Part shown: positions 2,449 through 23,884 of the stretch, piece after piece | Layout of the letters: each line of letters opens with the position of its first letter | Position numbering within the stretch: the stretch's first letter is position 1 | Origin: a virus | Lineage: Duplodnaviria; Caudoviricetes | Virus record (IMG/VR): IMGVR_UViG_3300033144_000866 | Coordinates: 1-24,667 of that record | Length of the DNA stretch: 24,667 nucleotides | Direction: 5' to 3' (one strand) | Notes under the pieces: generated by a model | Database searches by the model: none | The model's input: only the letters and a program-made list of their open reading frames with translations | What the model was told of the DNA's origin: nothing | Position numbers and translations under genes: made by a program

Positions 2449-2690
2449 GTATGGATTTAGCAAAAGCGAAAAACATTAAGGTGGCGGTTCAGAGGATGAT
2501 GGCTGACCCGGATGCCAAAGCGTTCCTTGAAGCTGTGTGTCACTTCAGGAAACCTTTGTGGATAGGCAACACGGAAGGTGCATTAGTTGCTGAAGGGCAG
2601 AGGCAAATATTCTTGACACTTTTAACCATCAACGAAGTAGAGCCGGATGTTATTGTCAGGCTATACGAAGAAAAAGGAGATCAACCATGA
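2445..2690 (+). CDS. Small portal-to-scaffold protein (Bbp19-like)
   Basis: 81 aa with DPDAKAFLEAVC and ALVAEGQRQIFL, matching the EGxR-type motif of small genes found between portal and scaffold. GGAG RBS and ATGA overlaps at both ends. Confidence 0.7.
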   Translation: MSMDLAKAKNIKVAVQRMMADPDAKAFLEAVCHFRKPLWIGNTEGALVAEGQRQIFLTLLTINEVEPDVIVRLYEEKGDQP

Positions 2691-3589
2691 CAGAGGGCAA
2701 TCAGGATCCGAATGCCGGGGCCGGAGCAGCAGGCCAAGGCGGTACGGGTAATCCCGATCCAAATCAGGGTGGGGCAGGGGCCGGCGAAGGTGCAGGGGCC
2801 GGTGCAGCAGGCGGTGAAGCAAAATGGTATTCAACGCTTGAAGGTGAATTAGCGACACACCCGGCGATTCAGAAGTTTGAGTCACCGACAGCGTTGGCGA
2901 AGGGATACATCGAGGCTGAGAAGTTCGTCAGCTACGATAAGGTCGTGAAACCTAAAGGCCCGGAGGATTCTCAGGGTTGGCAGAAGCATAACTCTGCAAT
3001 GGGTGTTCCCGGGGATGCAACAGGGTACAACGAAGTGCTGATGGATCCGAAGGAAGTTCCGCAAGGGATGACCTTTGACAAAGGCAAGTTTGCGACCGCG
3101 ATTCATCAGATGGGACTCAGGCCGGATCAAGCCGCGAAGGCTTACGGCATGTACACAACCGAGTTCATCGAAGGTCACAAAGCAACTGAAGAAGCGTATC
3201 AAACATCGTTGAACGCATCGGAAACCGAATTGAGGCGTGAGTGGGGATCTGCTTATGATCAAAACCTCGAGATGGGAACCCGGTTCGTCAGACATCAGAT
3301 CAAGGATGACGCAGAGTTCAATCGTATCAATGCGATCTATTCCGCTGATCCCGGTGTGATGAAGTTGTTTGCTCAAGCCGGTCGCGAGTTCAGCGAGAAC
3401 TCAATCGGTGGTTTCAAAGATTCGGGGGGAAGCAAGATGACCCCGGCTCAAGCACAGGAAGAGTATGACAACATCGTGGGTAATCCGAAGGACGATTACT
3501 ACAACGATACCAATTCTGTGCGTCAGCGAAGAATCAAGTATGTGGAAAGTTTAGTCGAACAGGGTGCAGACCCGGCGAAGATGGGATAA
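2687..3589 (+). CDS. Capsid scaffolding protein
   Basis: Gly/Ala/Pro-rich N-terminus, then KFESPTALAKGYIEAEK, MGVPGDATGY and ELRREWGSAYDQNL. Located directly before the capsid gene, with an AGGAG RBS. Confidence 0.85.
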   Translation: MTEGNQDPNAGAGAAGQGGTGNPDPNQGGAGAGEGAGAGAAGGEAKWYSTLEGELATHPAIQKFESPTALAKGYIEAEKFVSYDKVVKPKGPEDSQGWQKHNSAMGVPGDATGYNEVLMDPKEVPQGMTFDKGKFATAIHQMGLRPDQAAKAYGMYTTEFIEGHKATEEAYQTSLNASETELRREWGSAYDQNLEMGTRFVRHQIKDDAEFNRINAIYSADPGVMKLFAQAGREFSENSIGGFKDSGGSKMTPAQAQEEYDNIVGNPKDDYYNDTNSVRQRRIKYVESLVEQGADPAKMG

Positions 3590-8122: not shown

Positions 8123-8617
8123 ATGGGAGTCGGAGCAGCGTTAATAGCCACAACCGCAGTATCCGTAGGTGCGAAGTATATCGCGGCGAGGCAAGAGCAG
8201 AGAGCCTACGAATATAACGCTGACATCATGCAAGGGCAGATGTCCAATGTCGAGGCTGCCCGTAAAGTTCAGGAGATGCGGAATCAGGCGAACCGCGATC
8301 AGATGTTAGCCGAGCAGACAGTCGCTGTCGCATCCTCCGGCATCGAGATGACCGGCAGTCCGCTTGAAGTCATGAGTGCGGACTTAGCGAAAGCAGAGTT
8401 TGATATTGCGATTGACAATTACAATTTCGAGCAAGAGAAGACAAGGATCTATAACGAGGCGAACATGATGAGATATCAAGGGAAACAAACGGCCCGAGCC
8501 GGACTCCTGAACGCAATCGGTTCCGGCGTTGGTGGGATGACCGCAGCTTATAAGTACCGCGGTGCAACCTCATCGACCCCGACTGAGGCTCCTCTTGGAA
8601 AGATGGGGGGGAAATAA
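8123..8617 (+). CDS. Small ejection/internal virion protein (T7 gp14-like position)
   Basis: Hydrophobic Gly/Ala N-terminus, helical QRAYEYNA region, ASSGIEMTGSPLEV motif and Gly-rich C-terminus. GAGG RBS. Confidence 0.75.
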   Translation: MGVGAALIATTAVSVGAKYIAARQEQRAYEYNADIMQGQMSNVEAARKVQEMRNQANRDQMLAEQTVAVASSGIEMTGSPLEVMSADLAKAEFDIAIDNYNFEQEKTRIYNEANMMRYQGKQTARAGLLNAIGSGVGGMTAAYKYRGATSSTPTEAPLGKMGGK

Positions 8618-8619
8618 TC

Positions 8620-10098
8620 ATGCCTGATCTACCGAGATACCAACAGCGTGGCACTCTTCCCGATCAGAAGACTTCCATGGCGAGTAAAGATATTAAGACG
8701 GAATCATCCGTTTCTACGGCGGTTGGCACATTAGCGGATAAGGTCGCAGTCGGGATGGAGCAGTTCGCTAAGATCAAGATGGCGAATGAAGAGTCAACGG
8801 CGAAGATCCGGGCCGCGGAAGGCATCGCCAAGTTCAATGAAGATCTCACGAACAATCCCACGAAGTACACACCTCAAGAGATCACAAACCAACTGACGGA
8901 TATAGGGATGAGTGCGTCAGAGGGGATGACCTTTGAGATCGGGAAGAACGAATTCATGGCAGAGTACGGGATCATGAAGATTCAGGCACAGGTGAGGGCT
9001 AACGCCGCGGTCAGAGGATTTCAGATCACGCAATATCAGGAACTCACGAAGGTGAACCGGAAAGCTTATCAGGAATTAGCCCCGGCGGTACGGGAGGCCA
9101 AACTCGATGTGGAGTTAGCGGAAGGTCGAGATCTTGGAGCGTATGGATCCGATGAGATGGTTAAGAATGTTAAGACGCTTCAGATGCGTGAGTACGAGAA
9201 GAATGATGTCTACAACACCGCACCGTCTGATGTAAAAAAAGCTTTGAAGATGGTTGACGAGATGGAATGGATCACAGACGAGAAAGAGAAGGCAACGCTT
9301 AAAGCCCAAGCCAAGGACATCTACGACCGGCATCAGAAGATGGCAAACATCGACTCGCAGTTGATGTCTGACAAAGCATCGACTGATCTTCTAAAGGTTG
9401 TGAATGATCCCAAGGTTCCTATTGCGTCTGTCATTGAAGACATAAGCGGTCTTCAGCTTCAGCAGACCATCGATGCGAAGGAAGCGAAAGCGTACATCAA
9501 TCTCGCGACAAGTGCGAGAGGGGTTGCCCCAAAGACAAATCCTCGCATTCTTGCAAGCTTGGGATCGGACATGGCGTATTTGGCACAGATAGATAAAGCC
9601 ACGGCGATAGATGATCCGGTCGAGCATCTCCGGAAGATCCGGGACATCAAGTTGCGAATAGTTAATGCCTCGAATGGAGAACTGAGTCCGGCGATTGTAT
9701 CTCAGCTTATGCTTCAGCAACAGGGTTTAATCAAGGGTTTTAAGAATATCAGAGTGACAGCCCACGCGGCAACACAGAAACTTACGAAGGGTGGAATATG
9801 GGGGCATTACGGTTATAACGATGCCAATGACGATATCAAGAAAGGATTACCGCCTTCTCAATGGGGTGATGCATTCTTGGATTATTACACGAGTTCGGCG
9901 GTGGACAAGGAAACCGGCGAGATCGATATGAAGGGCGTTGATAAAAAAGCCTTAGTTCAGTTGATCATTCAGAAGAAGAAAGCCTCGGTGCTTGGTTCAT
10001 CAATCAAGACATTAACAGATGAGAAGACCGGAAGAGCATCATTTTACAAACGAGTACGGTTGGACAACGGAGAGGTCGTATGGGATCTGTTAGATTAA
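8620..10098 (+). CDS. Medium ejection/internal virion protein (gp15-like position)
   Basis: 492-aa helical, charged protein starting MPDLPRYQ, between the small and giant internal proteins. Assigned mainly by synteny. Confidence 0.6.
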   Translation: MPDLPRYQQRGTLPDQKTSMASKDIKTESSVSTAVGTLADKVAVGMEQFAKIKMANEESTAKIRAAEGIAKFNEDLTNNPTKYTPQEITNQLTDIGMSASEGMTFEIGKNEFMAEYGIMKIQAQVRANAAVRGFQITQYQELTKVNRKAYQELAPAVREAKLDVELAEGRDLGAYGSDEMVKNVKTLQMREYEKNDVYNTAPSDVKKALKMVDEMEWITDEKEKATLKAQAKDIYDRHQKMANIDSQLMSDKASTDLLKVVNDPKVPIASVIEDISGLQLQQTIDAKEAKAYINLATSARGVAPKTNPRILASLGSDMAYLAQIDKATAIDDPVEHLRKIRDIKLRIVNASNGELSPAIVSQLMLQQQGLIKGFKNIRVTAHAATQKLTKGGIWGHYGYNDANDDIKKGLPPSQWGDAFLDYYTSSAVDKETGEIDMKGVDKKALVQLIIQKKKASVLGSSIKTLTDEKTGRASFYKRVRLDNGEVVWDLLD

Positions 10099-13000
10099 CC
10101 GATGCACAAATGACAGAGGTGGAAGCCCAACAGGCTCCCTCTGCCGAGCCGGTTATGGGTCAGGTTGGTGACAAGCGATTGAGTTCAAAATCGATGGCAC
10201 GAATCTCCGCTTATAGCGATGTCGCCGGATTGCTTACGACAGATGACTCAGGAAAAACTCCGTTCACATTATCGCAACAGGGTCGTGGGCTTGGTCAGGG
10301 GATCATTGGAATTCCGGAAAGTATCTCAGGTCTTCCGATCATATTGGGCGAGAACATCCGAGAGTACGCCCCGGAGATGGTGGACGCATCACAGAGTCCA
10401 TTGCTTTTCGCTTCACGGATGGGAAGAGACACGGCACTTAAAGGCGATACTGCATACATTGCAAATCCTCTTGCGTATATCGCGTCAAAGATTGGATTGA
10501 GTCCGGAGCGAAAAGAGTCTTTGAAAAGAATGGGTTACGAAGAAGCGGTGATCAATCAGGTTGATAAGATCGGTGAAACGCTCGTGGAGTGGGGCGATGT
10601 TGCCCGGGACTATTACACGAATGCACGAAACGCAAGTTTTCTTGAACTCGATGAGGAAACATTCCGCGGTGGGTTCTTGGATAATCCGTCATGGACACGG
10701 GCTACAACCCTTGTGGCACAGGCGATCCCGAGTCTTGGAGCGGCGGCGATCATCACGGGCATGAGCGGTGGTAATCCGTTCCCGGCAGCGGTGTTCCTTG
10801 GCGTGATTGAGTCTGAACCGGTTTATGATCGGGCGAGAGAGATGGGGCTACCACAGGCTCAGAAGAATGTTTTATTTGGAGTGACCGCAGCCGGAACAAC
10901 CGCCCTTGAGTTCATGGCATTAAGTAGGATCATGAAAGGCCCGGGCAAGTCCCGGATCATCATGGCAACGGTTGGCGATAGATTGCTTCCGATGGAGGTT
11001 AGCAAGCAAGGCGTGAAGGTTGTGGGTCGCGGTCTTGTGGCGAGGCTTGGACGATCCCGGTTCGGGCATATTGTTTCCGGGATGATGACTGAGGGCGGTC
11101 AGGAAGCAACACAGCAGTTTTGGCAGAACCTTGTGGTGAAGGCAGGCATGGATGCCACTCAGGATCTCTTTGAGGGCGTTATTGATTCTCTCATTGCCGG
11201 AGCCGGTAGCGGTGGTGGCGTGTCCGCATTCGTTTCGGGACGCAAAAATTATCTGAAGCAGTTCAGTCAGGAAGAGATCGATGGTGCGATTGAGACATTG
11301 TCGAAGACGCTTGCGGACAACGGCGGTGATCTCGATGCCGTGATCAAGAAGAGTGTCGATGAGATCCACAAGCAGCCCATCGATATCCCCGGGCCTGAGA
11401 CAGGCTACGCTTCTGAGGAAGATATCAAAGCTGAGAACCGTGTCATGAAATTGGCAGAGGATCTTGGTGTGAAGATCGATAAGATTGAATACATCGATGA
11501 AGAAAAACACGCGAAGTGGGATGATGTTGAAGGTCGAAAAATTATTGAAAAAGCAGGCTACAACGAGGAGGAATACAATGCCGCAATCAAACGAGGGGAA
11601 CGGTTCGTCATCACCGGTGAACACGAGGTATCGTCTGAGCCGGGTAGACAAGGACGGTCAAGTATTAGACTCTTCCGTGGTCACACTACCCGGGACATCT
11701 ACCATGAGTTCGCCCACGCAGTCGAAGAGCAAGGCGGCCTCCCCGGGTGGGCAGGGACAAAAGAGCAACACGCCCAATACTTAGAACGCTCTCTCCAAGC
11801 CGAAGACGAGGGGGCGATCTCTGAGTTCACCTCTGAAGGCTCGAAGGTGATGGCTGAGAATGTCGCGGACAATCCTGAGATCGTCATCACGGATGGAGCC
11901 GCGGCGGTGGATGTTAATGACTCAGTCAGGACTGTTGCAGCAACGAAAGAAGATTTCATAAAAGCGAACAAGAAAGCAAAGCTGTTCTCCACCGGGGAGA
12001 TCAATAAGTTTTTCAAGGATGTCGATAATGTCACGAATTTTATCATCAACAATCCTGATCTCCTTGATTACGAAGCATCGCCTTTTTTCTCAGCGGTGAA
12101 AAAGAATTCCGATCCTCAGTACAAAAGATCTTTGGATTTCACAACGATGTGCATCAAGCGGTATGTGATGCAGAAGACTATTGATGAAGTTCAGTTACGC
12201 CTTAATCGTCCGCTCAACGCTGATGAGTTCATGCAGATCCGGGAGAGCCTCCGGGCGAAGGGCATCGATACAGCATGCGGTGCGTGTTATGTCGAGACTC
12301 GCCGGATGTACACGGAGACAGTTATTCAGAAAGCACTCGAAGGATATGTCCGCGTTGAGAACCGTGGCAAGAAAAATGAGAAGGCAATTTTCATGAAGCC
12401 TCTCAAAGTTCCACGGTCGTATCTCCTTTCTATGGAAGGACTTGCGAGAATGCAGAATGAGTTCCCGGCAGAGTACAAGAAGTTCCGGAAGATCTACGCC
12501 GGCACTCAGATGAAAGCACACGAACCAAGAACGGAATACCGCGGTGAGATCTTGAAGTTCTCAAAGGCACTTGTCGAGAGTTTTAATTCCGCGTCCGGCA
12601 TGAGGTGGCAGTCGTGGTCTGACTTTGAACTCCCTCATTTACTTGATGGGATGCAAGCGATCATGGACATGTCGGTCAAGAAATTAAAAGGGCATGCGTA
12701 CACGAAGGTGACGAATTTTGTTTTGTCATATGGGCCGACCGGCCTCTCGATCAACATGAGTCTGATCCCTAAAGGAACCGGGTTTGATAAAAACGGGAAT
12801 CTTGTTTTCGATAAGGAGCAATCCTTTGATTTTAAGGAAGGTTTGAAACTCCGGGACAAATACGACAATGTTGGATTCGTTGCCATTGGAATTTCTGATG
12901 AGCATATCAAAGCACTCCTCGCGGATCCTCGCATTGATTATGTGATCCCGTATCATGCGTCCGGACTGAGCAAGGACTTTCAGAAACGGATCGGCATGGA

Positions 13001-16000
13001 AGGTTGGACAGATTATTCCAAGAAGCAGATGTATCGTGGCAAGGACGGGAAGCCCCGGGCGAAGCATCCCTACATCGCGGACTTCAAAGGAGATCTTGCC
13101 GTGTTCGATAAGCTGATGAAGAAAGCCGGGCTGACTCCTCCTTTTAAGGATATGAGGGAATGGAAAGGCTACGAGAAGCTTTTGACGGATCGCCGGATAT
13201 GGGACAAGAAGGGGAAGTACATCGAGCAGAAAGCGGTACGCCCGGACTTCGATATGCGTCAGATCAATAAGATGCTCAAGGATTACAAGGGTGGTGCGGT
13301 TGAGGCTGATGCAACAACGGTTGGTGACATGGTCGGAAAGCTTAGTACTCAAGCCTCTGTCCGGACGGTTAAGGCCGACAAGAATTTTATGAATTGGTTT
13401 GAGGGATCTAAGGTTGTTGACAAGAACGGTGATCCTTTAGTTGTTTATCATGGAACGACTAAAGACTTTAAAAAATTCAGCTTGGGAGACAAAGGGAATG
13501 TTCATGCGGAGTCTCTGAACATGGATATGTTTTTCTTTACCGATAACCCGGATGTGGCAGACACCTATGCAAAAAACGAATGGAAAGACGATGGTGATAT
13601 CGGTGGAAACATAATGCCTGTCTTCCTATCTCTCAAGAACCCTCTGATCATTGATGCAAACGGCAAAGGGTGGCAAGACGCATACAGCGATGTCGTTGAC
13701 GAGTTGAATCCTCATTACTCAAAAGCGGAGGTTTCGTTTAGAAAATTCAGAGATTCTTTGATCGAGAAATACGGAGAGACAAAGATAAGGCATGAGTTTG
13801 AAGAGACTTTAACGGTAGCAGAGAAGAAAAAAATTGATGCTTTGCAAGAAAAGGCTAATGAGACAAGCCGATTTCCGGGGAAAGCTGTGGGTGCATATCC
13901 GCACGATGGCGTGATTATAAAGGGCGTAAATGATCCCGGCGGTGAGTTTAGATCCGAAGAAGAATACACTCCATTCTCAGATGTGTATGTTGCATTTGAT
14001 TCAACGCAAATCAAATCAGCGACAGGGAATATTGGAACTTACAGCCCGACAAACAAAAATATAAATGCATCCGTCAAGCGTGTGAAGTCCGTCACGAAAT
14101 ATTATCAAACGCTCACCGCTCTCACCGAAGAGATCGGCATGAAAAAGGGATGGCTCATCGGCCTGAAGAACGAAGAGGAAGTCGTGAACGCTTTGTCTCA
14201 GATGAGGCAGCAGTACCGGGATGAATTTGAAGATACCAAAGATCCGGAGCGTAAGAAGAAGCTGAAGGCATGGATCAAGGAGCAGACCACGCAGATCAAG
14301 AAGGTGCGTCAGACGATGATCGAGACTCGCAAGGAATCGAAGTATGGGGATGTCCAAGCCAAGCTGCGAAACCTACAGCAAGGGTTCCGGATCGGTGTCG
14401 TTGAAGGCAAGACTGATGTGAAGGCCACTCAGGAGAAGCTGATCGAGATCCTGACGGAATCAGAACTCCCGGCGAAGGATTACAAGAAGTTCCTTCCCAC
14501 CATCAAAAATACGAACACGCACGAGAAGCTGATCGAAGGACTGCCCGGGATCGTCAACCGGATCAACAAACTTGTAGAGGCTCATTACAAGAACATCCTG
14601 AAAGATAAGATCAAGGCTGAACTGAAAGCTACGAAGCCGATCAAGCAGGGATCAATGCGTAAGGGGAAATACGACTACACGACAAACAAGTATTTCCAAG
14701 ATCTTCTGAAGGCAACCAAGCTGAATCAAGATGAAGCGGAGTCATTGCTTCAGGCGTTGGATGTTCCCACTACAGAAAAAGAAGCCATGATCAAACGCTT
14801 CTTGATGCTAAAAGCAAATGGAATGTCCGCGTCACTTGACCTTCACCTGAATGTGCTTATGGATATCGTCCGGGCGAAGAAGGTCGGACAGGACGCGAAG
14901 GATGAGGCATCTTTCGATAAAGCGTTGGAACGCGAGATCCGCATCAAAGAACTTGAGGAATCCATCGCAGACATGAAAGGCGATCCGGACAAGATCAGAA
15001 CCAAGATCGTCAATGCCTACACTCAGGGCATGGGCAACATTTGGTCGATGCTCAACGCTCTTTACGGCAAGCAGATCGCGGATGATCTTAACCCGGAACT
15101 CTACGAGAACCGCCGGGACACAGCGATGTATTACAAGACAACCGAAACCGTTGCCGGATCCGCGAAGCTTCTTGGCATCAAGGGGCATGGCGAGTTTCTA
15201 TCGTGGCTCACGGATATGGTGAATGAGGAACACGAACTGATCGACATCATTTACAACAAGCCCCGGAAGATCAACATGCTTGACATCATGGACATCTATA
15301 ACGCGGTCAAGAACGATGCTATCCGGGAGCGGTACTATAACAACTTCGGCGAACCGCAAGTCAAAGAGATGATCGCGAAATTAAGCACCCGGCAAAAAGC
15401 GGTCGCGGATTATTGGCAGGCTGTTGTTCAGGGTTATATGGGGATCCTCAACGCAAGCAATATTGAGATCAAAGGAATCGATCTTGGGCGTGTCGATAAC
15501 TATTGGCCTGCCACGAGCGAGAGAACGATCATTGAAATCTATGACGATATGAAGGTGCAAAGCAATACTCCCGGCTCGATGAAGGAGAGATCCAAGTCCA
15601 CGAAGATCATGCCGAAGCCGAAAAATGCGTGGTTCAAGCTTCAGAAGCACATTGCAGAGGGTGAGCATGTGAACCATTTGTCTAAAAAACACGCTGATTT
15701 AAGCCGGCTGTTCTTAGACTATCGTGTGCGACAGGACATCCACAACAAGTTCGGGGAGGAAGTTTATAATACTCTGCTCGACATGATAGAAAATATTAGT
15801 CTTCATAAACAGACCACGAACCTCGACAAGGTCGAGAAGTGGTTCGGTAAGGGTTTGAATAATTGGGTCATTGCAAAGATCGCTCTTAACCCATCTGTCT
15901 TCGTGAAACAGTTGATCTCGATGGGCAACTACATGGAAGTAATGTCCACGGCAGAATGGGGTAAGTATTGGGCAGAGGGAATAGCGGATCCCCAAAAGAC

Positions 16001-16814
16001 TTGGAAATTTATGATGGAGAATGTGCCGTATCTTAAAGCCCGGTACGCTCGTGGTATGACAGAGGCGATCTCCGCGGCGATCACGGAAGCCAATAAGATG
16101 AGTAAGTTGAAACACAATTGGACGAAGGCGATGAGTTCTCTTGTCCGTGGTGGTGATATGATGGCAATCATTTATGGTGGTTACCCAATGATCAGGTCTT
16201 TGATGGCGAAGGGTTTGTCCATGCAAGACGCGGTCGATCAGTTTGAATCAGCGACATTGAAGTCACAGCAGTCCGGTTTGTCTACAAGCAGATCGCAATG
16301 GCAGAACAACCCAAGTGCATTCGCCCGGTTATTTCTTGCGTTTAAGAACACGCCGGCACAGTATTTTAGAAAGCAGATGGATGCGTTTATCAGCTTTGGG
16401 CATGGTGACATTTCAAAGACACAGCTTGCGAAAACGATTACGATCTATGGAGTGATACAGCCGGCACTTTATGGTCTTGCCGGGACTATGATGAGGGCTG
16501 CGTTATACGGCGATGACGATTGGGAAGAGACATGGTTCATGGATATGCTCGCCGCGATTGCACTTAATCCGTTTAATGCGATCCCGGTGCTTGATGATGT
16601 TATCGCCGGATCAATACGAATGATGCAGGGCAAATATGTTTGGAAGATGATGAGTACTCCAATGCTTGATGACATCTCTTCATCGTTTGAAGTTTGGGGA
16701 AAGAAAGACATCGACTTCATCGATGTTGTTAATAGTTTTGGAGTCATAGGCGAAGTTGGAGCCGGAGTTCCCGTCAAGCTGTTCACAAGAATTATCAATC
16801 GCTTTACTGATTAA
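10080..16814 (+). CDS. Giant polyvalent ejection protein: hydrophobic Gly-rich N-region, HExxH peptidase-like, Gp88/radical-SAM-like and ART-PolyVal-like modules, helical C-region
   Basis: 2244 aa in the gp16-like position. Motifs: EGGQEATQQ, YHEFAHAVE (aa 541-549), C691/CGACYVE/MRWQSWSDF/HAYTK, and WFEGSKVVDKNGDPLVVYHGT...FFFTDN...VFLSLKNP...YVAFDSTQIKSATGN. Confidence 0.85.
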   Translation: MGSVRLTDAQMTEVEAQQAPSAEPVMGQVGDKRLSSKSMARISAYSDVAGLLTTDDSGKTPFTLSQQGRGLGQGIIGIPESISGLPIILGENIREYAPEMVDASQSPLLFASRMGRDTALKGDTAYIANPLAYIASKIGLSPERKESLKRMGYEEAVINQVDKIGETLVEWGDVARDYYTNARNASFLELDEETFRGGFLDNPSWTRATTLVAQAIPSLGAAAIITGMSGGNPFPAAVFLGVIESEPVYDRAREMGLPQAQKNVLFGVTAAGTTALEFMALSRIMKGPGKSRIIMATVGDRLLPMEVSKQGVKVVGRGLVARLGRSRFGHIVSGMMTEGGQEATQQFWQNLVVKAGMDATQDLFEGVIDSLIAGAGSGGGVSAFVSGRKNYLKQFSQEEIDGAIETLSKTLADNGGDLDAVIKKSVDEIHKQPIDIPGPETGYASEEDIKAENRVMKLAEDLGVKIDKIEYIDEEKHAKWDDVEGRKIIEKAGYNEEEYNAAIKRGERFVITGEHEVSSEPGRQGRSSIRLFRGHTTRDIYHEFAHAVEEQGGLPGWAGTKEQHAQYLERSLQAEDEGAISEFTSEGSKVMAENVADNPEIVITDGAAAVDVNDSVRTVAATKEDFIKANKKAKLFSTGEINKFFKDVDNVTNFIINNPDLLDYEASPFFSAVKKNSDPQYKRSLDFTTMCIKRYVMQKTIDEVQLRLNRPLNADEFMQIRESLRAKGIDTACGACYVETRRMYTETVIQKALEGYVRVENRGKKNEKAIFMKPLKVPRSYLLSMEGLARMQNEFPAEYKKFRKIYAGTQMKAHEPRTEYRGEILKFSKALVESFNSASGMRWQSWSDFELPHLLDGMQAIMDMSVKKLKGHAYTKVTNFVLSYGPTGLSINMSLIPKGTGFDKNGNLVFDKEQSFDFKEGLKLRDKYDNVGFVAIGISDEHIKALLADPRIDYVIPYHASGLSKDFQKRIGMEGWTDYSKKQMYRGKDGKPRAKHPYIADFKGDLAVFDKLMKKAGLTPPFKDMREWKGYEKLLTDRRIWDKKGKYIEQKAVRPDFDMRQINKMLKDYKGGAVEADATTVGDMVGKLSTQASVRTVKADKNFMNWFEGSKVVDKNGDPLVVYHGTTKDFKKFSLGDKGNVHAESLNMDMFFFTDNPDVADTYAKNEWKDDGDIGGNIMPVFLSLKNPLIIDANGKGWQDAYSDVVDELNPHYSKAEVSFRKFRDSLIEKYGETKIRHEFEETLTVAEKKKIDALQEKANETSRFPGKAVGAYPHDGVIIKGVNDPGGEFRSEEEYTPFSDVYVAFDSTQIKSATGNIGTYSPTNKNINASVKRVKSVTKYYQTLTALTEEIGMKKGWLIGLKNEEEVVNALSQMRQQYRDEFEDTKDPERKKKLKAWIKEQTTQIKKVRQTMIETRKESKYGDVQAKLRNLQQGFRIGVVEGKTDVKATQEKLIEILTESELPAKDYKKFLPTIKNTNTHEKLIEGLPGIVNRINKLVEAHYKNILKDKIKAELKATKPIKQGSMRKGKYDYTTNKYFQDLLKATKLNQDEAESLLQALDVPTTEKEAMIKRFLMLKANGMSASLDLHLNVLMDIVRAKKVGQDAKDEASFDKALEREIRIKELEESIADMKGDPDKIRTKIVNAYTQGMGNIWSMLNALYGKQIADDLNPELYENRRDTAMYYKTTETVAGSAKLLGIKGHGEFLSWLTDMVNEEHELIDIIYNKPRKINMLDIMDIYNAVKNDAIRERYYNNFGEPQVKEMIAKLSTRQKAVADYWQAVVQGYMGILNASNIEIKGIDLGRVDNYWPATSERTIIEIYDDMKVQSNTPGSMKERSKSTKIMPKPKNAWFKLQKHIAEGEHVNHLSKKHADLSRLFLDYRVRQDIHNKFGEEVYNTLLDMIENISLHKQTTNLDKVEKWFGKGLNNWVIAKIALNPSVFVKQLISMGNYMEVMSTAEWGKYWAEGIADPQKTWKFMMENVPYLKARYARGMTEAISAAITEANKMSKLKHNWTKAMSSLVRGGDMMAIIYGGYPMIRSLMAKGLSMQDAVDQFESATLKSQQSGLSTSRSQWQNNPSAFARLFLAFKNTPAQYFRKQMDAFISFGHGDISKTQLAKTITIYGVIQPALYGLAGTMMRAALYGDDDWEETWFMDMLAAIALNPFNAIPVLDDVIAGSIRMMQGKYVWKMMSTPMLDDISSSFEVWGKKDIDFIDVVNSFGVIGEVGAGVPVKLFTRIINRFTD

Positions 16815-18513: not shown

Positions 18514-18882
18514 ATGGCTCAAGGATATACAGGAGCATCAACATTTAATACTGCAAGGGTTAAGGCTTTAATTGATGGGGCTACCGTTGCAACCGATGTG
18601 AGTCTTGGGTCTGTCTTTACTTTGACCACGACTCAGATCTTCACGCTTTCCAATCCGACCAACTCCTTTGACGGAGCGAAGATCGTTTGGAGAATCAAGC
18701 AGGGTGGGGCCGGTAGTTTTACGATCACGCTCGGTGCAGATTTCCGGGTGGCTTCGGATATTAACGCAGGGGTGATCACGCTTTCGACTGCGGTCGGAAC
18801 GATTGATTATCTCGGTGCAATCTATAATGCGGATGATTCTAAATGGGACATCATCTCATTTACCAAAGGAATCACCACATAA
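18514..18882 (+). CDS. Small fibre-tip/adaptor protein
   Basis: 122 aa with LIDGATVATDVSLG, TLSNPTN, RIKQGGAGSFTI, TLSTAVGTIDYLGAIYN and KWD, a recurring small fibre C-terminal domain pattern. Confidence 0.7.
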   Translation: MAQGYTGASTFNTARVKALIDGATVATDVSLGSVFTLTTTQIFTLSNPTNSFDGAKIVWRIKQGGAGSFTITLGADFRVASDINAGVITLSTAVGTIDYLGAIYNADDSKWDIISFTKGITT

Positions 18883-18892
18883 GGAGGAAGTC

Positions 18893-21800
18893 ATGGCATC
18901 ACCGACACTTTATAGACCGGATTCAATCCCGACAGGGCTTGCTGTGTATTACAAGTTTGATGGCGATGCCACGGATAGTTCTTCGTCCGGGTTCGATCTT
19001 ACTCCTGTTGCTTCTCCAACCTATGCTGCCATTGACTTTTGGAACTCAGGAGAGGATTCTGTAGACCTAAATGGGACTACTCAGTATTTTACAGGTGGAG
19101 ACAACTTAGACCTAAATGGGAAAAGTTATTCTGTTGCTTTTTGGGTGAAGGCTGATGCTGCTGTTGATTATTACATCATAGGCAAAGGGGTTGCAGGGTC
19201 AACAGGATACTATCTGCGGAGGGAATCAACAGGTTATCTTAGCCTTTATATGGGGGCTATAACAAACACAGGGACAGGGGTTGTTATCCCGGATAAGTGG
19301 CATCATGTCGTTGTGACTTATAACAACAGTTCAACTTTGGTTAATATCTATGTTGATGGAAATTTAGTAACTTCTGCTACTAATGCAGGGGTTATTGCTG
19401 ATGTTGCTGGTGATTTTACTGTCGGTTCACGCCCAAATGTTCCTCCACAACTTCCCCTTAATGGTCGTTTGAAAGACCTCGCTATGTGGGTTACGGCTGA
19501 CACTTCTGCCGTTCTCACTCCGATCCAAGCCAAATCCCTTGCTATGGGTGTTGATATGGATTCCCTTGCCTATCGTCCGGGGAACACGACCGTTCCACCT
19601 GATGCGTGGTATCCATGTAACGAATTGAGCGGTCTAAGGGCTGATGCTATTGGATCTTTGGACTTAACGCCTACTGCAACCCCCGGAGTGCTTGGTGGAT
19701 TCGTTGAGGGCGTTGCTCCTGATTTCAATGGGTCAACTCAGTACCTTACATCCGCATCAAATGCAATCTTCTCAGCCGGTACAAGTGATTTCACTCTTTG
19801 TGCTTGGGCATTTTTTGAAACGCTTGGCTCTCAGCATGCCATTGTTTCAACAGGGCATACCACGAACAACATTTCTATGACTTGGTTCAATAGTGGGAAT
19901 CTCTATGTCTATATGCAAGGAAGTGCGAGGCAATTCTCTTGGACTCCGGTAATAGGAACTTGGTATCACATTCTTCTCAAGAGAACGAGTGGTGAATTGC
20001 AAGCCTTTGTTGATGGTGTTGAGATTGGTGCTGCTATCACTTCGACTGAAACCCTCTCAGGGGTTCAACAGTTTGGCGTTGCTTTTGATGGGGCTGTTGG
20101 AAAGCTGAATGGTAGGGCTTGTGATGCCGGATGGTGGAATGGTCATGCTGTGCCTCAAGATGAGATTTCAGCACTCGCCTCTGCCTTCCCGATCCAACAA
20201 CAGGGCATCTCATCTTATTGGAAGCATGATGAGCCGAAGGGTGGGAAAGATGTCACCGCGGTTGGGAATGCAAAGCAGGTTCCTTACAAGATCAATAAGT
20301 CGGCAGCGTTTTTCGATGGCACGACCGGAAATTATTTGTTAGTTCCGCAATCAACAGATTGGGATTTAGGATCAGGAGATTATTCCATCGAAGTATATTT
20401 CAACATGAGTGAAAACAAAGACTTTTGGTTGTGGGATAGAGGAACAGCACCGGCTAATAGGATCGGTTGCCTTTACCAAACCGGAAGATGGTATTTTTAT
20501 GAGAACGGAGGTCAGATTGTAAACGATTATATTTGGACTCCGACCTTAAACACTTGGTACAAAATGAAACTTGAAAGGTCTTCGGGAACTGCAACGATGT
20601 ATGTTGACGATACAGCTCGTGGCACTCCGGTTGTAACTTCGACTAACATTACAGGAACTACAGAACTTGTCATTGGTGCTGTAGCTACTAAGAACGGAAG
20701 TTATTTCCACGGATGGATGAAGAACTTTGTCATCACCAAAGCCTCCACCGAAGTCCTTAACATGGCGTTTGATACTCCGGCTACGGTTCCGCTTGCTCCG
20801 GCAATTTGGTTTCCTACAGGGGCAACAGATTTTCTTACGGTTGCGGATTCGGCTGATTGGGATTACGGCACAGGTGACTTCACGATTGAATCTTGGGTGT
20901 ATCAAGATGCGGATCACGCCGGGGCGAATGCCATTTACGATAATGGTTATGATGTGAATGGGATTCAATGCCACTTCTATTGGGATAATGCTTCAGCCGG
21001 TTATACAAATATTTATCTCAACAGCGGAGTAGCAGCCTTGGCTGTTACGGGGCTGTCCGTCAAGAGAAACGCTTGGCATCATCTTGCGTGGTGTCGATCG
21101 AGTGGAACCCTAAAGTGTTTCTTGGACGGACGAGAAATTGGGTCTGTTGCAAACAGTACGAACATAAGTGGTTCAACCCAATTACTTACGATTGGGAAGT
21201 ATTACAATTCTACCACCGCAGCCACGATGGGGTATTTGAAGGAGTATCGTGTCAGCGATAATGCAAGATACACGACCGACTTCACGCCTACTCAGGATGG
21301 ATTCACGGCTGATGTGAACACGATGCTTTACCTGAAGGCGTTAGAAGATAATGGCGATGCAACTTTTGTTGATAGCAGCACCGTGCCGAAGGCGATCACT
21401 ACGAATGGGGATTGTGTCATTCGGTATTTTGAGGATTACCGGGCAGGGATTTTTGTGGATGATTCAGCATCAGCCCATTTGCCGTATCCTCAAGGTGCAA
21501 CGAAGGTTGATTTCTTCGTTCCGTTTGGTGATTCGGTTGCTCGATTCGATGGGGTGGTCGATAAACTTACGATCCCAACACACGATGATTGGAATGTGCG
21601 TACCGGGGATTTCACTTGTGAAGGGTATATCCGGAGGATGGCTCCGCAAGTTTTCACGATTTTATTCTCTCGTGGAACGAATGAGATTATGTTCCGCACC
21701 GGGAATGGTGCTGATGAAAACATGATCGTGTATCTCAATTCAGGTCTTGTTGGGCAGACAGGGTATGTGTCCACGCCCCGGCTTGAGTTGAATATTTGGT

Positions 21801-23884
21801 ATCATGTTGCCTTTTCCCGGCAGTCAGGGATCGGGAGAATCTACATCAATGGAAACTTAGGTCTGCAAGCAGCAAGCACTCAGGACTTAAACTCTTCGTC
21901 CGTGATGCAGATAGGTGCTTTGCAGTCCTCTGACATCTCAAACGCCATGATGGATTTGATGCGGTTCTCAAGTGGGCTTGCACGGTACACGGAAGAGTGC
22001 TTTAATCCTCCGTCTGAGATTCCTATCTCGGATGGCTACACAGCGTTGCAGATGGATATGGATAATGCAACCAACTTTGAATCTGCTCCGGCTCTTGATG
22101 GAACAGGGGATGCTATCTTTATCTCCAACGCCAACAAGGGGGGTGGGTTTGAATTTGGCACAGGGGCTTTCACCGTTGAGGGATGGTTTAATTTCTCTTC
22201 CCTTCCAAGCGTTGTTGACCTTTTGAATCTTGGTCAAGGTGGGGCAAGAGGTGTCCGGCTTCAGTACAACACCGGCTCTCTCTATCTCACCGTGCAAGCA
22301 ACCTCCGGGCCTAACTTTGTCTTCGCTCCCGGCTTTGGGTCATGGTATCACCTTGCTGCCGTAAGGGAATCGACTGCTTCAAACAAAACTCACATTTTTA
22401 TAAATGGAGTGAGAGTGGCTTCCGGAACGAATGCCGGGAATGTAGCGACAGCGTCAGATGTAATGAATTTTTGTTCAGACCAAACTTTCGCTAAAGCACT
22501 TCCGGGGTTCGCAAAGAATATCAGAGTGAGTAATGTTGCTCGATACACGGACGCATCGAACTTTGTTCCTGCCACAGATTTCACTTCCGATGGGAACACC
22601 GTAGTCCTCATTAAGGGCAATGAGCCTATGGGATCGGGGCAGACGATTGTTCCGGACATGACATCCGCTGTGCTTCCTGCTCCGTATGTAGCATCTGCTG
22701 ATTCTGAGTTTTCAGGAACATACGCAGCTTGGAAAGCGTTTGATTCAAGCGGTGCATCAAATTGGGCATCGACAATTACAGCGTTTCCTCATTGGCTTAA
22801 ACTTGACCTCGGAACTGCTGTAGCAATAGACGAGTATCGAGTTACCGGGAATGTAGGAAATGGGCCGAAGGATTGGACATTCGAGGGGTCGAATACCGGA
22901 GCATTTGGAGGGGAAGAAATAACACTTGATACTGTGGTAGGGCAACCTGCATCCGGTTTAGAAGTTCCTTACCAATTCACAAACTCAACAGCCTATCGTT
23001 ATTACAGGTTGAATATCTCAGCCGGCCAAGCAGTCAACGAAGTTGATGTGTTCAACTTGGTTCTTTGTCGCAAGATCGCTGATTCTTCTTCGTCAGCTTT
23101 GACTCTAAACATCAATGGAGATTTAGCCATTAAGGGATGTCCGGGCAACTCCGCTGCGTTCCAAGATGATGGTGGGGCAGGATCAGGGCTTGCCGTGACT
23201 CTTGCTGATGAGATCGGAACAAATAATCTAACCACGATCAATGATCCTGTTCAGTCGGTTGGCAAGGTTGGGAACTCCACGAACTTTGAGCAGTTGAGTC
23301 AGCAATCCGCACAGGTGGGTTCGGTGAATGGGTTGCGACCGGGAACCGGGGATTTTGCTTATAGTGCTTGGGTGAAGAAGGAAACAACGATTGGGGCACA
23401 AGAGATGACGCTCTGCGGAACAGGCAGGGGAAATCTTGCCAATGGGGATTGGAGTTGCTATTGGTACTTGAATCAGATGCGTTTCCGGCATTCCAACCAA
23501 TCCACTTGGACTTTCGTCATGGCCGATGGTATTTGGTATCACATCATTGTCATGAGAGATGTTTCGACAACGGCAGGGATGAAGTTCTATCTGAATGGGG
23601 TTTTGATAACTCCGGTTGCAGCAAACACTAACTTGAACCTGTCAAGCGTCAATGACTTCTCCATTGCGACTCATTTGTATAATGGATCTACGGCTGAGTC
23701 ATGGTGGGATGGTCTGATGGATGAGACAACTTTTGCCCTGCGGTATTACAGACCGGAAGAGGCAAAAACGCTCTACATCAAGGGTCACAATGAACTCGAT
23801 GTCGATTCAGATCCAACGCCTACACCGCCCGTGCCACCTATCGATGATGGTGTCCGGGGAATGTTTTTAAATTTCAATCTTTAA
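18893..23884 (+). CDS. Giant receptor-binding/adhesin protein with seven LamG (ConA-like) domains and one F5/8 type C (discoidin) domain; start revised to ATG 18893
   Basis: AAGGAGG RBS at 18881-18887. Seven copies of (D/A)F(T/S)xxxW...W(Y/H)H...YxNG-type cores, and a discoidin signature AWKAFD...PHWLKLDLG...PKDWTFEGSN...YRYYRLNI. Confidence 0.88.
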   Translation: MASPTLYRPDSIPTGLAVYYKFDGDATDSSSSGFDLTPVASPTYAAIDFWNSGEDSVDLNGTTQYFTGGDNLDLNGKSYSVAFWVKADAAVDYYIIGKGVAGSTGYYLRRESTGYLSLYMGAITNTGTGVVIPDKWHHVVVTYNNSSTLVNIYVDGNLVTSATNAGVIADVAGDFTVGSRPNVPPQLPLNGRLKDLAMWVTADTSAVLTPIQAKSLAMGVDMDSLAYRPGNTTVPPDAWYPCNELSGLRADAIGSLDLTPTATPGVLGGFVEGVAPDFNGSTQYLTSASNAIFSAGTSDFTLCAWAFFETLGSQHAIVSTGHTTNNISMTWFNSGNLYVYMQGSARQFSWTPVIGTWYHILLKRTSGELQAFVDGVEIGAAITSTETLSGVQQFGVAFDGAVGKLNGRACDAGWWNGHAVPQDEISALASAFPIQQQGISSYWKHDEPKGGKDVTAVGNAKQVPYKINKSAAFFDGTTGNYLLVPQSTDWDLGSGDYSIEVYFNMSENKDFWLWDRGTAPANRIGCLYQTGRWYFYENGGQIVNDYIWTPTLNTWYKMKLERSSGTATMYVDDTARGTPVVTSTNITGTTELVIGAVATKNGSYFHGWMKNFVITKASTEVLNMAFDTPATVPLAPAIWFPTGATDFLTVADSADWDYGTGDFTIESWVYQDADHAGANAIYDNGYDVNGIQCHFYWDNASAGYTNIYLNSGVAALAVTGLSVKRNAWHHLAWCRSSGTLKCFLDGREIGSVANSTNISGSTQLLTIGKYYNSTTAATMGYLKEYRVSDNARYTTDFTPTQDGFTADVNTMLYLKALEDNGDATFVDSSTVPKAITTNGDCVIRYFEDYRAGIFVDDSASAHLPYPQGATKVDFFVPFGDSVARFDGVVDKLTIPTHDDWNVRTGDFTCEGYIRRMAPQVFTILFSRGTNEIMFRTGNGADENMIVYLNSGLVGQTGYVSTPRLELNIWYHVAFSRQSGIGRIYINGNLGLQAASTQDLNSSSVMQIGALQSSDISNAMMDLMRFSSGLARYTEECFNPPSEIPISDGYTALQMDMDNATNFESAPALDGTGDAIFISNANKGGGFEFGTGAFTVEGWFNFSSLPSVVDLLNLGQGGARGVRLQYNTGSLYLTVQATSGPNFVFAPGFGSWYHLAAVRESTASNKTHIFINGVRVASGTNAGNVATASDVMNFCSDQTFAKALPGFAKNIRVSNVARYTDASNFVPATDFTSDGNTVVLIKGNEPMGSGQTIVPDMTSAVLPAPYVASADSEFSGTYAAWKAFDSSGASNWASTITAFPHWLKLDLGTAVAIDEYRVTGNVGNGPKDWTFEGSNTGAFGGEEITLDTVVGQPASGLEVPYQFTNSTAYRYYRLNISAGQAVNEVDVFNLVLCRKIADSSSSALTLNINGDLAIKGCPGNSAAFQDDGGAGSGLAVTLADEIGTNNLTTINDPVQSVGKVGNSTNFEQLSQQSAQVGSVNGLRPGTGDFAYSAWVKKETTIGAQEMTLCGTGRGNLANGDWSCYWYLNQMRFRHSNQSTWTFVMADGIWYHIIVMRDVSTTAGMKFYLNGVLITPVAANTNLNLSSVNDFSIATHLYNGSTAESWWDGLMDETTFALRYYRPEEAKTLYIKGHNELDVDSDPTPTPPVPPIDDGVRGMFLNFNL

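Follow-up and report, generated by a model that had tools for sequence, protein, structure and literature searches.

For the polyvalent proteins of phages, autoproteolytic release has been proposed by Iyer and colleagues, with the polyproteins of RNA viruses as the analogy (PMC5512222), a proposal to which an earlier sequence-only reading of the DNA considered here had also referred. One such protein, gp47 of phage phi24B (2811 amino acids, aa), is found in the virion, no processing being mentioned in the accessible text of that report (bioRxiv 10.64898/2026.04.10.717836). The cryo-EM structure of the virion RNA polymerase (vRNAP) of coliphage N4 features an HExxH domain attached to its neighbours (PMC13434306). 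Cut sites of packaged proteins have been described in other systems: in T4-like phages, prohead proteases cleave behind Glu residues (PMC5694885), and the P1 capsid protein is cut at E120/S121 (PMC9024508). Here we describe a giant protein of 2244 aa encoded in IMG/VR virus record IMGVR_UViG_3300033144_000866, a partial phage genome of 24,667 bases that was analysed as a whole contig (the window). It belongs to the phage polyvalent proteins, and its candidate cleavage sites go together with its built-in peptidase across relatives.

Several biochemically unrelated domains that vary among relatives are combined in this one large polypeptide. They include two hallmark domains of polyvalent proteins, ART-PolyVal (PF18760, above cut-off) and a zincin-like metallopeptidase (MPTase) domain. 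The gene context also corresponds to that of polyvalent proteins, with genes for portal, capsid, tail tubular and internal virion proteins upstream and a tail fibre gene downstream. The order of modules is N-region, zincin-like HExxH domain, radical-SAM-like cassette, ART-PolyVal cassette and helical C-region, with three short junction tags at the following positions:

10080..16814, + strand: giant polyvalent protein, 2244 aa, in the largest-ejection-protein position of a podovirus-type structural cluster
10080..11399, + strand: N-region, aa 1-440, common to part of the scaffold family
11415..11804, + strand: zincin-like metallopeptidase domain, aa ~446-575, from conserved residues and fold matches
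11832..11918, + strand: low-confidence linker, aa 585-613, predicted local distance difference test score (pLDDT) under 50
11919..11936, + strand: junction tag 1, (VN)DSVRTV, D614, at a homology break
11922..13334, + strand: radical-SAM-like (GP88-like) cassette with split cysteine motif C691-x41-C733-x2-C736
13353..13370, + strand: junction tag 2, (TQ)ASVRTV, A1092, at a homology break
13419..14039, + strand: ART-PolyVal cassette, aa 1114-1320, PF18760, E 8e-25, 88.7 bits (cut-off 31.2)
14067..14084, + strand: junction tag 3, (IN)ASVKRV, A1330, in the slot found downstream of ART in homologues
14070..16811, + strand: conserved C-region (the scaffold), 61 homologues with 22-47% identity

The sequence-only reading had proposed that a repeated [D/A]SV[R/K]xV motif delimits enzyme cassettes in this protein, either as a cleavage site for the upstream peptidase or as a junction for swapping cassettes. 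The three motifs do occur at D614, A1092 and A1330 of the open reading frame at 10080-16814, and all three delimit cassettes in that they lie at breaks in homology coverage. The domains named on either side of them (peptidase, radical-SAM-like, ART) were also called correctly, as judged by the predicted folds of aa 440-590 and 610-1050 and by the PF18760 match. The motif is real, albeit drawn more narrowly than in nature. Judged from homologous sequences, its conserved core is xS[VIL][RK], which is one lineage's version of a wider junction tag of the form aromatic-[S/Q/R]. The N-terminal MGSVRL, to which the same reading had pointed, is present in the protein, but it has no counterpart in the 14 homologue N-termini compared and is probably due to chance. 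The exact pattern [DA]SV[RK]xV, picked after the fact, never reached three copies in 20,000 shuffles of the protein, and some pattern of three residues, a gap and one residue reached at least three copies in 417 of 500 shuffles. Recurrence was rejected as stand-alone evidence on this ground, and the case rests instead on position and on homologues. The other S[VIL][RK] occurrences of the cassette region (at 723, 865 and 1184) sit inside conserved domains. In the predicted model, tag 1 follows the low-confidence linker and opens the first helix of the radical-SAM-like cassette, and tag 2 opens a final segment of pLDDT under 50.

When the peptidase domain was searched against 1.84 billion representatives, 47 other proteins were obtained, and the cassettes of these clade relatives differ from those of the query. 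Tag copies are alike within a protein, e.g. LASVRE, LASLRE, HASIRE, QSSLRE and LASLRE in P0305, KASVRN, QASLRK, QASIRK and LASVRK in P0314, ENSIK, DNSLK and ENSIR in P0322, and QKSIR, LRSIR and QRSIR in P0307. In 17 of 32 clade proteins, S[VIL][RK] lies at a distance of 35-125 aa downstream of HExxH, where about 4 such proteins would be expected (3-9 for five control patterns), 6 of the 38 long proteins having been dropped with HExxH variants that the search pattern missed. The cassette regions of the 30 clade proteins scored, out of 34 (four having no scorable region), hold 70 xS[VIL][RK] sites, i.e. 3.51 per 1000 aa compared to 1.54 elsewhere, and four control patterns are flat (1.10/1.56, 3.11/3.27, 1.81/1.42 and 2.31/1.82 per 1000 aa, cassette/elsewhere). 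The residue before Ser is the same within a protein in 33 of 137 pairs, relative to a null value of 9.5, and in 20/82, 14/75 and 13/60 pairs in three leave-outs; the last of these, against 3.4 expected, excludes the query, three close relatives and the protein richest in sites. Tag sites coincide with homology breaks at 25 of 40 scorable positions, compared to 37 of 121 control sites (p 6e-4).

The scaffold behaves differently from the tag. The query's N-region is found in none of the other 33 clade proteins, and its C-region in a single one. Conversely, nine non-redundant relatives of the scaffold (C-region) that carry a sister peptidase clade have 4.65 Gln-type and 0.72 Ser-type tags per 1000 aa of cassette region, against 3.46 Ser-type and 1.31 Gln-type tags for the query's peptidase clade. 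As shown by these comparisons of homologous sequences, the tag changes with the peptidase clade and not with the scaffold, in a double dissociation. Whether the variable middles of homologues are bounded by the motif, a question raised together with the motif itself, is thereby answered positively, and since the tag follows the peptidase clade, a cleavage site is the favoured one of the two options.

Additional information on the joints came from proteins that share single modules with the query. The middles of the 61 C-region homologues hold differing cassettes and, by eye, each homologue repeats a joint of its own, FYQ/YYQ/LFQ in some and RFR/KFK or KYS/KMS in others; relatives without the peptidase, also judged by eye, lack the tags. 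Anchoring on the end of the ART domain gave access to the post-ART slot (INAS in the query) in 119 further proteins among 1177 found, repeated ART copies within one protein not being independent in these counts. Elsewhere this slot is of Gln, Ser, Arg/Lys, Ala-Ser, Lys-Ala/Ser or Glu type, mostly with one type per protein, and 10 of the 13 non-redundant proteins with Gln after ART carry the sister peptidase clade (among 212 non-redundant proteins). The start of the radical-SAM-like cassette could be anchored in 115 of 120 sequences, with Ser in 95, Gln in 11, Asn in 5, Gly in 3 and Asp in 1, preceded by Tyr or Phe in 82 of the 115. A motif profile at peaks of BLAST alignment ends gave an approximately two-fold rise of [RKLIYFM][FY][SQ] just before the ends, and was noisy at alignment starts.

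Other kinds of border were also noted. A second type, starting with approximately EA[RK]KY and ending with IW[NE][KQ]A, occurs in the middle regions of P0012, P0013, P0017, P0022, P0023, P0025 and P0049, which are scaffold relatives mostly without an HExxH domain. The post-ART slot holds Lys-Ala/Ser or Glu motifs resembling head-protease sites in P0066, P0077, P0115, P0126, P0154, P0166 and P0174, and an HExxH candidate is rarer with slots of this kind (7/17) than with Gln, Ser or Arg types (51/65). Cassette proteins without HExxH are also encoded by gp272-gp273 of Tunturiibacter phage Tunturi_5 (L007:6385-12264), with K-x-A and L-A-S motifs and an ART domain that ends in SILASLR. Tags of the Gln type also occur in cultured phages, e.g. 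Caulobacter phage Jess A (gp39) and Limnohabitans phage DC33. In P0187, the peptidase and radical-SAM-like pair lies within a protein otherwise punctuated by Lys-Ala/Ser and HKYIKR repeats, which suggests that this pair can also move as one unit. Finally, P0307 features a short tandem duplication of peptidase tail and tag (aa ~680-945), between two tag copies.

The domain that the tag follows has features of a zinc peptidase. The HExxH motif is H542-E543-x-x-H546 (11703-11717), with E562 (11763-11765) as candidate third ligand; in the peptidase alignment of 48 rows, E543 and H546 are conserved throughout, E562 in 47 rows and H542 in 45. An AlphaFold model of aa 440-1107 built from an alignment of 25 rows (mean pLDDT 82) features helices at 537-550 and 561-573, fitting an HExxH helix followed by a Glu on the next helix, within a three-stranded sheet with one N-terminal and two C-terminal helices as in zincin-like MPTases. 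When this model was compared with 48,161 solved chains, 25 of the top 50 rows examined were zinc peptidase folds on model residues 1-165, the best being ERAP1 (Z 7.0, root-mean-square deviation (rmsd) 3.4, 101 aligned). All 25 rows (Z 5.2-7.0) are under the tool's trust level of 8, and the evidence for the zincin-like fold, which holds for aa 440-590 as modelled, is the uniformity of the fold list, single Z values being middling. A single-sequence model of the peptidase (pLDDT 52) gave no zincin in the fold search, whereas the alignment-based model did. Foldseek gave nothing at E 0.001 or better against PDB and, against BFVD, one uncharacterised protein plus weak SprT-like and GP88 rows. A profile search of the peptidase alignment against the sequences of solved structures gave no match, nor did the query peptidase match Pfam, including its curated MPTase models. 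It does match the sister clade in a profile comparison (probability 95%). Variants in which EExxH, HExxxH or HExxE replace HExxH were noted in P0308, P0317 and P0339, in P0303, P0320, P0331 and P0333, and in P0186.

On the sequence evidence, we consider it probable, with some reserve, that the protein's own zincin-like domain recognises the tag and cuts there. The zincin would recognise xS[VIL][RK] in exposed joints and cut either between x and Ser, by analogy with the Glu-Ser bond cut in P1, or between Ser and Val, as the preference of thermolysin-type enzymes would suggest. Enzymes of the thermolysin type prefer a hydrophobic residue after the cut. The predicted products are of 66.2 kDa (N-region and peptidase), 54.9 kDa (radical-SAM-like), 26.6 kDa (ART) and 104.5 kDa (C-region). 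Such cuts would release the enzymes from the ejection scaffold, and the time for this is more likely the unfolding or refolding of the chain during ejection than a stage prior to packaging. Internal sites that look like the tag would be protected by the fold, and newly gained cassettes would be selected to carry the tag of the resident peptidase.

Several observations weigh against this proposal. The Ser of tag 1 is largely a property of its cassette, given the 95 of 115 homologues with Ser at this place, and tag 1 is modelled as a helix start. Ser also precedes the radical-SAM-like cassette in five proteins whose peptidase is of the Gln-associated clade, a clade in which P0054-P0056 and P0058 use Ser immediately ahead of the peptidase. 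The specificity of the tag, if real, would thus be loose. The strict tag is absent from the cassette region of 7 of 30 clade proteins. Anchor-free dipeptide counts in the 212 non-redundant proteins gave little signal, cross-family concordance was 11/40 compared to 8.9 expected (p 0.08; noisy, with many false anchors), and a matrix test of scaffolds with and without the peptidase gave p 0.17, the matrix having missed two of the three query tags. Both tag patterns were drawn from the data on which they were tested, the statistics ignore shared ancestry, and the peptidase tree is mostly unresolved, with 2 of 27 branches starred. Moreover, the HExxH-bearing vRNAP of N4 is packaged unprocessed, with the domain attached (PMC5512222, PMC13434306).

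This last point is equally what would be expected if the tag were bound and not cut, serving as a docking or threading signal for a peptidase-like domain or for the ejection machinery, with modules as beads on a string, as the linked subdomains of N4 vRNAP would illustrate. Such a signal would account equally well for the co-variation with the peptidase clade. The catalytic Glu is nevertheless invariant in 48/48 clade rows, as would be the case in an active enzyme, and in other proteins the slot holds Glu- and Lys-type motifs like those of known head-protease sites; we regard an uncut tag as unlikely, while giving it some weight.

A different protease might also cut the tag, be it the product of a phage gene beyond the partial contig, of the scaffold-position gene, or of the host, leaving the built-in zincin to attack host proteins, an effector role that Iyer et al. 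permit for such peptidases (PMC5512222). The contig of 24.7 kb is indeed incomplete, and the scaffold-position protein, the only other protease candidate in the window, has a weak match to phrog_18242 ('protease', E 3e-4). Against an external enzyme, the tag follows the built-in peptidase over unrelated scaffolds, and S[VIL][RK] occurs nowhere in portal and capsid proteins and once in the scaffold-position protein. We see little chance that this explanation is correct.

Slighter still is the chance that the tag has no reader at all, being either a structural feature of module starts, with Ser as helix N-cap and often S-x-x-E, or left over from the duplication of modules. The modelled helix start at tag 1, the many relatives that read S[IL]RE and the tandem duplication in P0307 all fit with such an origin. 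Thr is also a good helix N-cap; yet Thr is not enriched (1.10 compared to 1.56 per 1000), Gln takes the place of Ser with the sister peptidase clade, and the copies flank unrelated cassettes with no excess of shared codons.

The codons also bear on the DNA level. The three tag Ser codons of the query are TCA, TCT and TCC. Among 70 non-redundant genes from fetched loci, 62 of which have at least two wide-pattern sites, Ser codons are identical in 231 of 874 pairs (220.6 expected) and mix TCN and AGY types in 336 pairs (394.6 expected), the wide pattern taking in chance sites and most of these genes lying outside the query's peptidase clade. With the strict pattern (7 genes), 1 of 11 pairs is identical compared to 3.5 expected; the peptidase pattern found 1, 3 and 0 loci in three collections, too few for a clade-specific DNA test. 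The tag is maintained as a protein sequence and does not correspond to a DNA repeat, codon likeness being that expected from gene codon usage. The phrase "junction for swapping cassettes" describes well where cassettes change, and fails as regards a repeat in the DNA. Microhomology for cassette recombination, suggested by cassettes that do change at these joints, is very improbable in view of these codon counts.

Returning to self-cleavage at the tag, the cargo that would be released includes the radical-SAM-like cassette. Its C691, C733 and C736 are kept in 82 of 82 alignment rows. In the fold search described above, the other 25 of the top 50 rows were radical SAM enzymes on model residues 170-635, the best being spore photoproduct lyase (Z 8.1, rmsd 4.8, 239 aligned), and a radical-SAM-like fold with a partial barrel holds for aa 610-1050 as modelled. 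The three invariant Cys and the predicted fold are points of likeness to the GP88 family (PF17338) and spore photoproduct lyase; GP88 is also the Atlas neighbour of the cassette (0.94, 192 shared features, low recognition score), and comparing its profile with those of 7 GP88-like segments gave a weak result (probability 0.6%). Unlike in the radical SAM superfamily, 41 residues instead of 3 separate the first Cys from the CxxC pair, so that no match to the canonical CxxxCxxC spacing was found, and the cassette has no Pfam match. Its 201 homologues are in giant proteins, and no relatives were found in annotated phages. Based on the model, the cassette is a candidate injected DNA-modifying or repair enzyme. 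Neither "radical SAM" nor "gp88" appears in the main text of the paper on polyvalent proteins from 2017 (PMC5512222).

The remainder of the structural cluster occupies the + strand of the contig, with an acetyltransferase, portal (PF12236), a small open reading frame, the scaffold-position gene, capsid (PF19821) and tail tubular genes, followed by an internal virion protein (phrog_418), a 492-aa gene, the 2244-aa gene and tail fibre genes. Two features adjoin the subjects discussed above:

2687..3589, + strand: scaffold-position gene between portal and capsid, matching phrog_3742 (unknown, E 1e-36)
8123..10098, + strand: two genes upstream of the giant gene (164 aa and 492 aa), in ejection-protein position

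The 164-aa protein matches phrog_418, internal virion protein (E 1.7e-13), and the 492-aa protein has no match. From this gene position, the giant protein is likely packaged in the virion and ejected with the DNA. Its N-region (aa 199-390) weakly matches phrog_2206, the N-terminal part of a virion RNA polymerase family (E 1.5e-9), and has BLAST matches of 25-35% in several C-region homologues. The C-region has no Pfam or PHROG match, and single-protein pattern searches gave no relatives of C-region or ART in viral contigs. The scaffold-position protein (2687-3589) has a Gly/Ala-rich N-terminus, a GNAT acetyltransferase gene lies at 35-634 immediately upstream of the portal gene, and a large protein of the tail region (18803-23884) features seven laminin G-like stretches and a galactose-binding-like domain.

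A broader proposal, to which we would give about even chances, is that short-tailed phages use a self-processing polyprotein code. Each embedded zincin clade would have a tag particular to it, Ser-Val/Ile/Leu-Arg/Lys for the query's clade and aromatic-Gln for the sister clade. Tag and peptidase would move as a pair between unrelated scaffolds, and a captured enzyme flanked by tags would become a releasable injected effector. In the query, one such cargo would be a radical SAM enzyme with a split motif, closest to spore photoproduct lyase and delivered together with the DNA. If true, the tags would allow domain boundaries to be read by rule in giant phage proteins, of which thousands are uncharacterised, and would define a family of compact sequence-specific peptidases. 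The protein offers a candidate enzyme of 130 aa, three predicted sites, four product sizes and a sister clade with another tag, and tests by swapping enzyme and tag therefore become possible.

Full-text literature searches, whose coverage leaves out most subscription journals, gave no paper on such junction tags. Among known systems, the polyvalent proteins of Iyer, Burroughs, Anand, de Souza and Aravind (2017) are similar in that a large protein of the virion cluster joins an HExxH zincin, ART-PolyVal and unrelated domains. They differ in that the query's peptidase clade is without a Pfam match, and in that no junction motif or site is named in the main text of that work, where "linker" is absent and "cleavage site" appears just in the title of a reference (PMC5512222). 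N4 gp50 is likewise ejected and multidomain, with flexible linkers and a zincin-like subdomain that bears HExxH (PMC13434306; PMC5512222), but it is a polymerase and not a row of swappable cassettes, it is packaged unprocessed, and no repeated tag is described in the accessible text (PMC13434306). DdrB of phage P1, an MPTase-bearing packaged protein reported to be processed to 76 kDa, belongs to a myovirus context and has no tag array, its site and enzyme being unmapped in the text of PMC5512222. In prohead-protease processing (T4, phiKZ, SPN3US, P1), a short repeated motif marks the cut sites of packaged proteins as it may do here (PMC5694885, PMC9024508). There, however, a separate serine protease cuts after Glu in head maturation, whereas here the candidate zincin lies inside its own substrate. 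What is new in the present case is the dissociation of peptidase from scaffold, together with the control at the DNA level.

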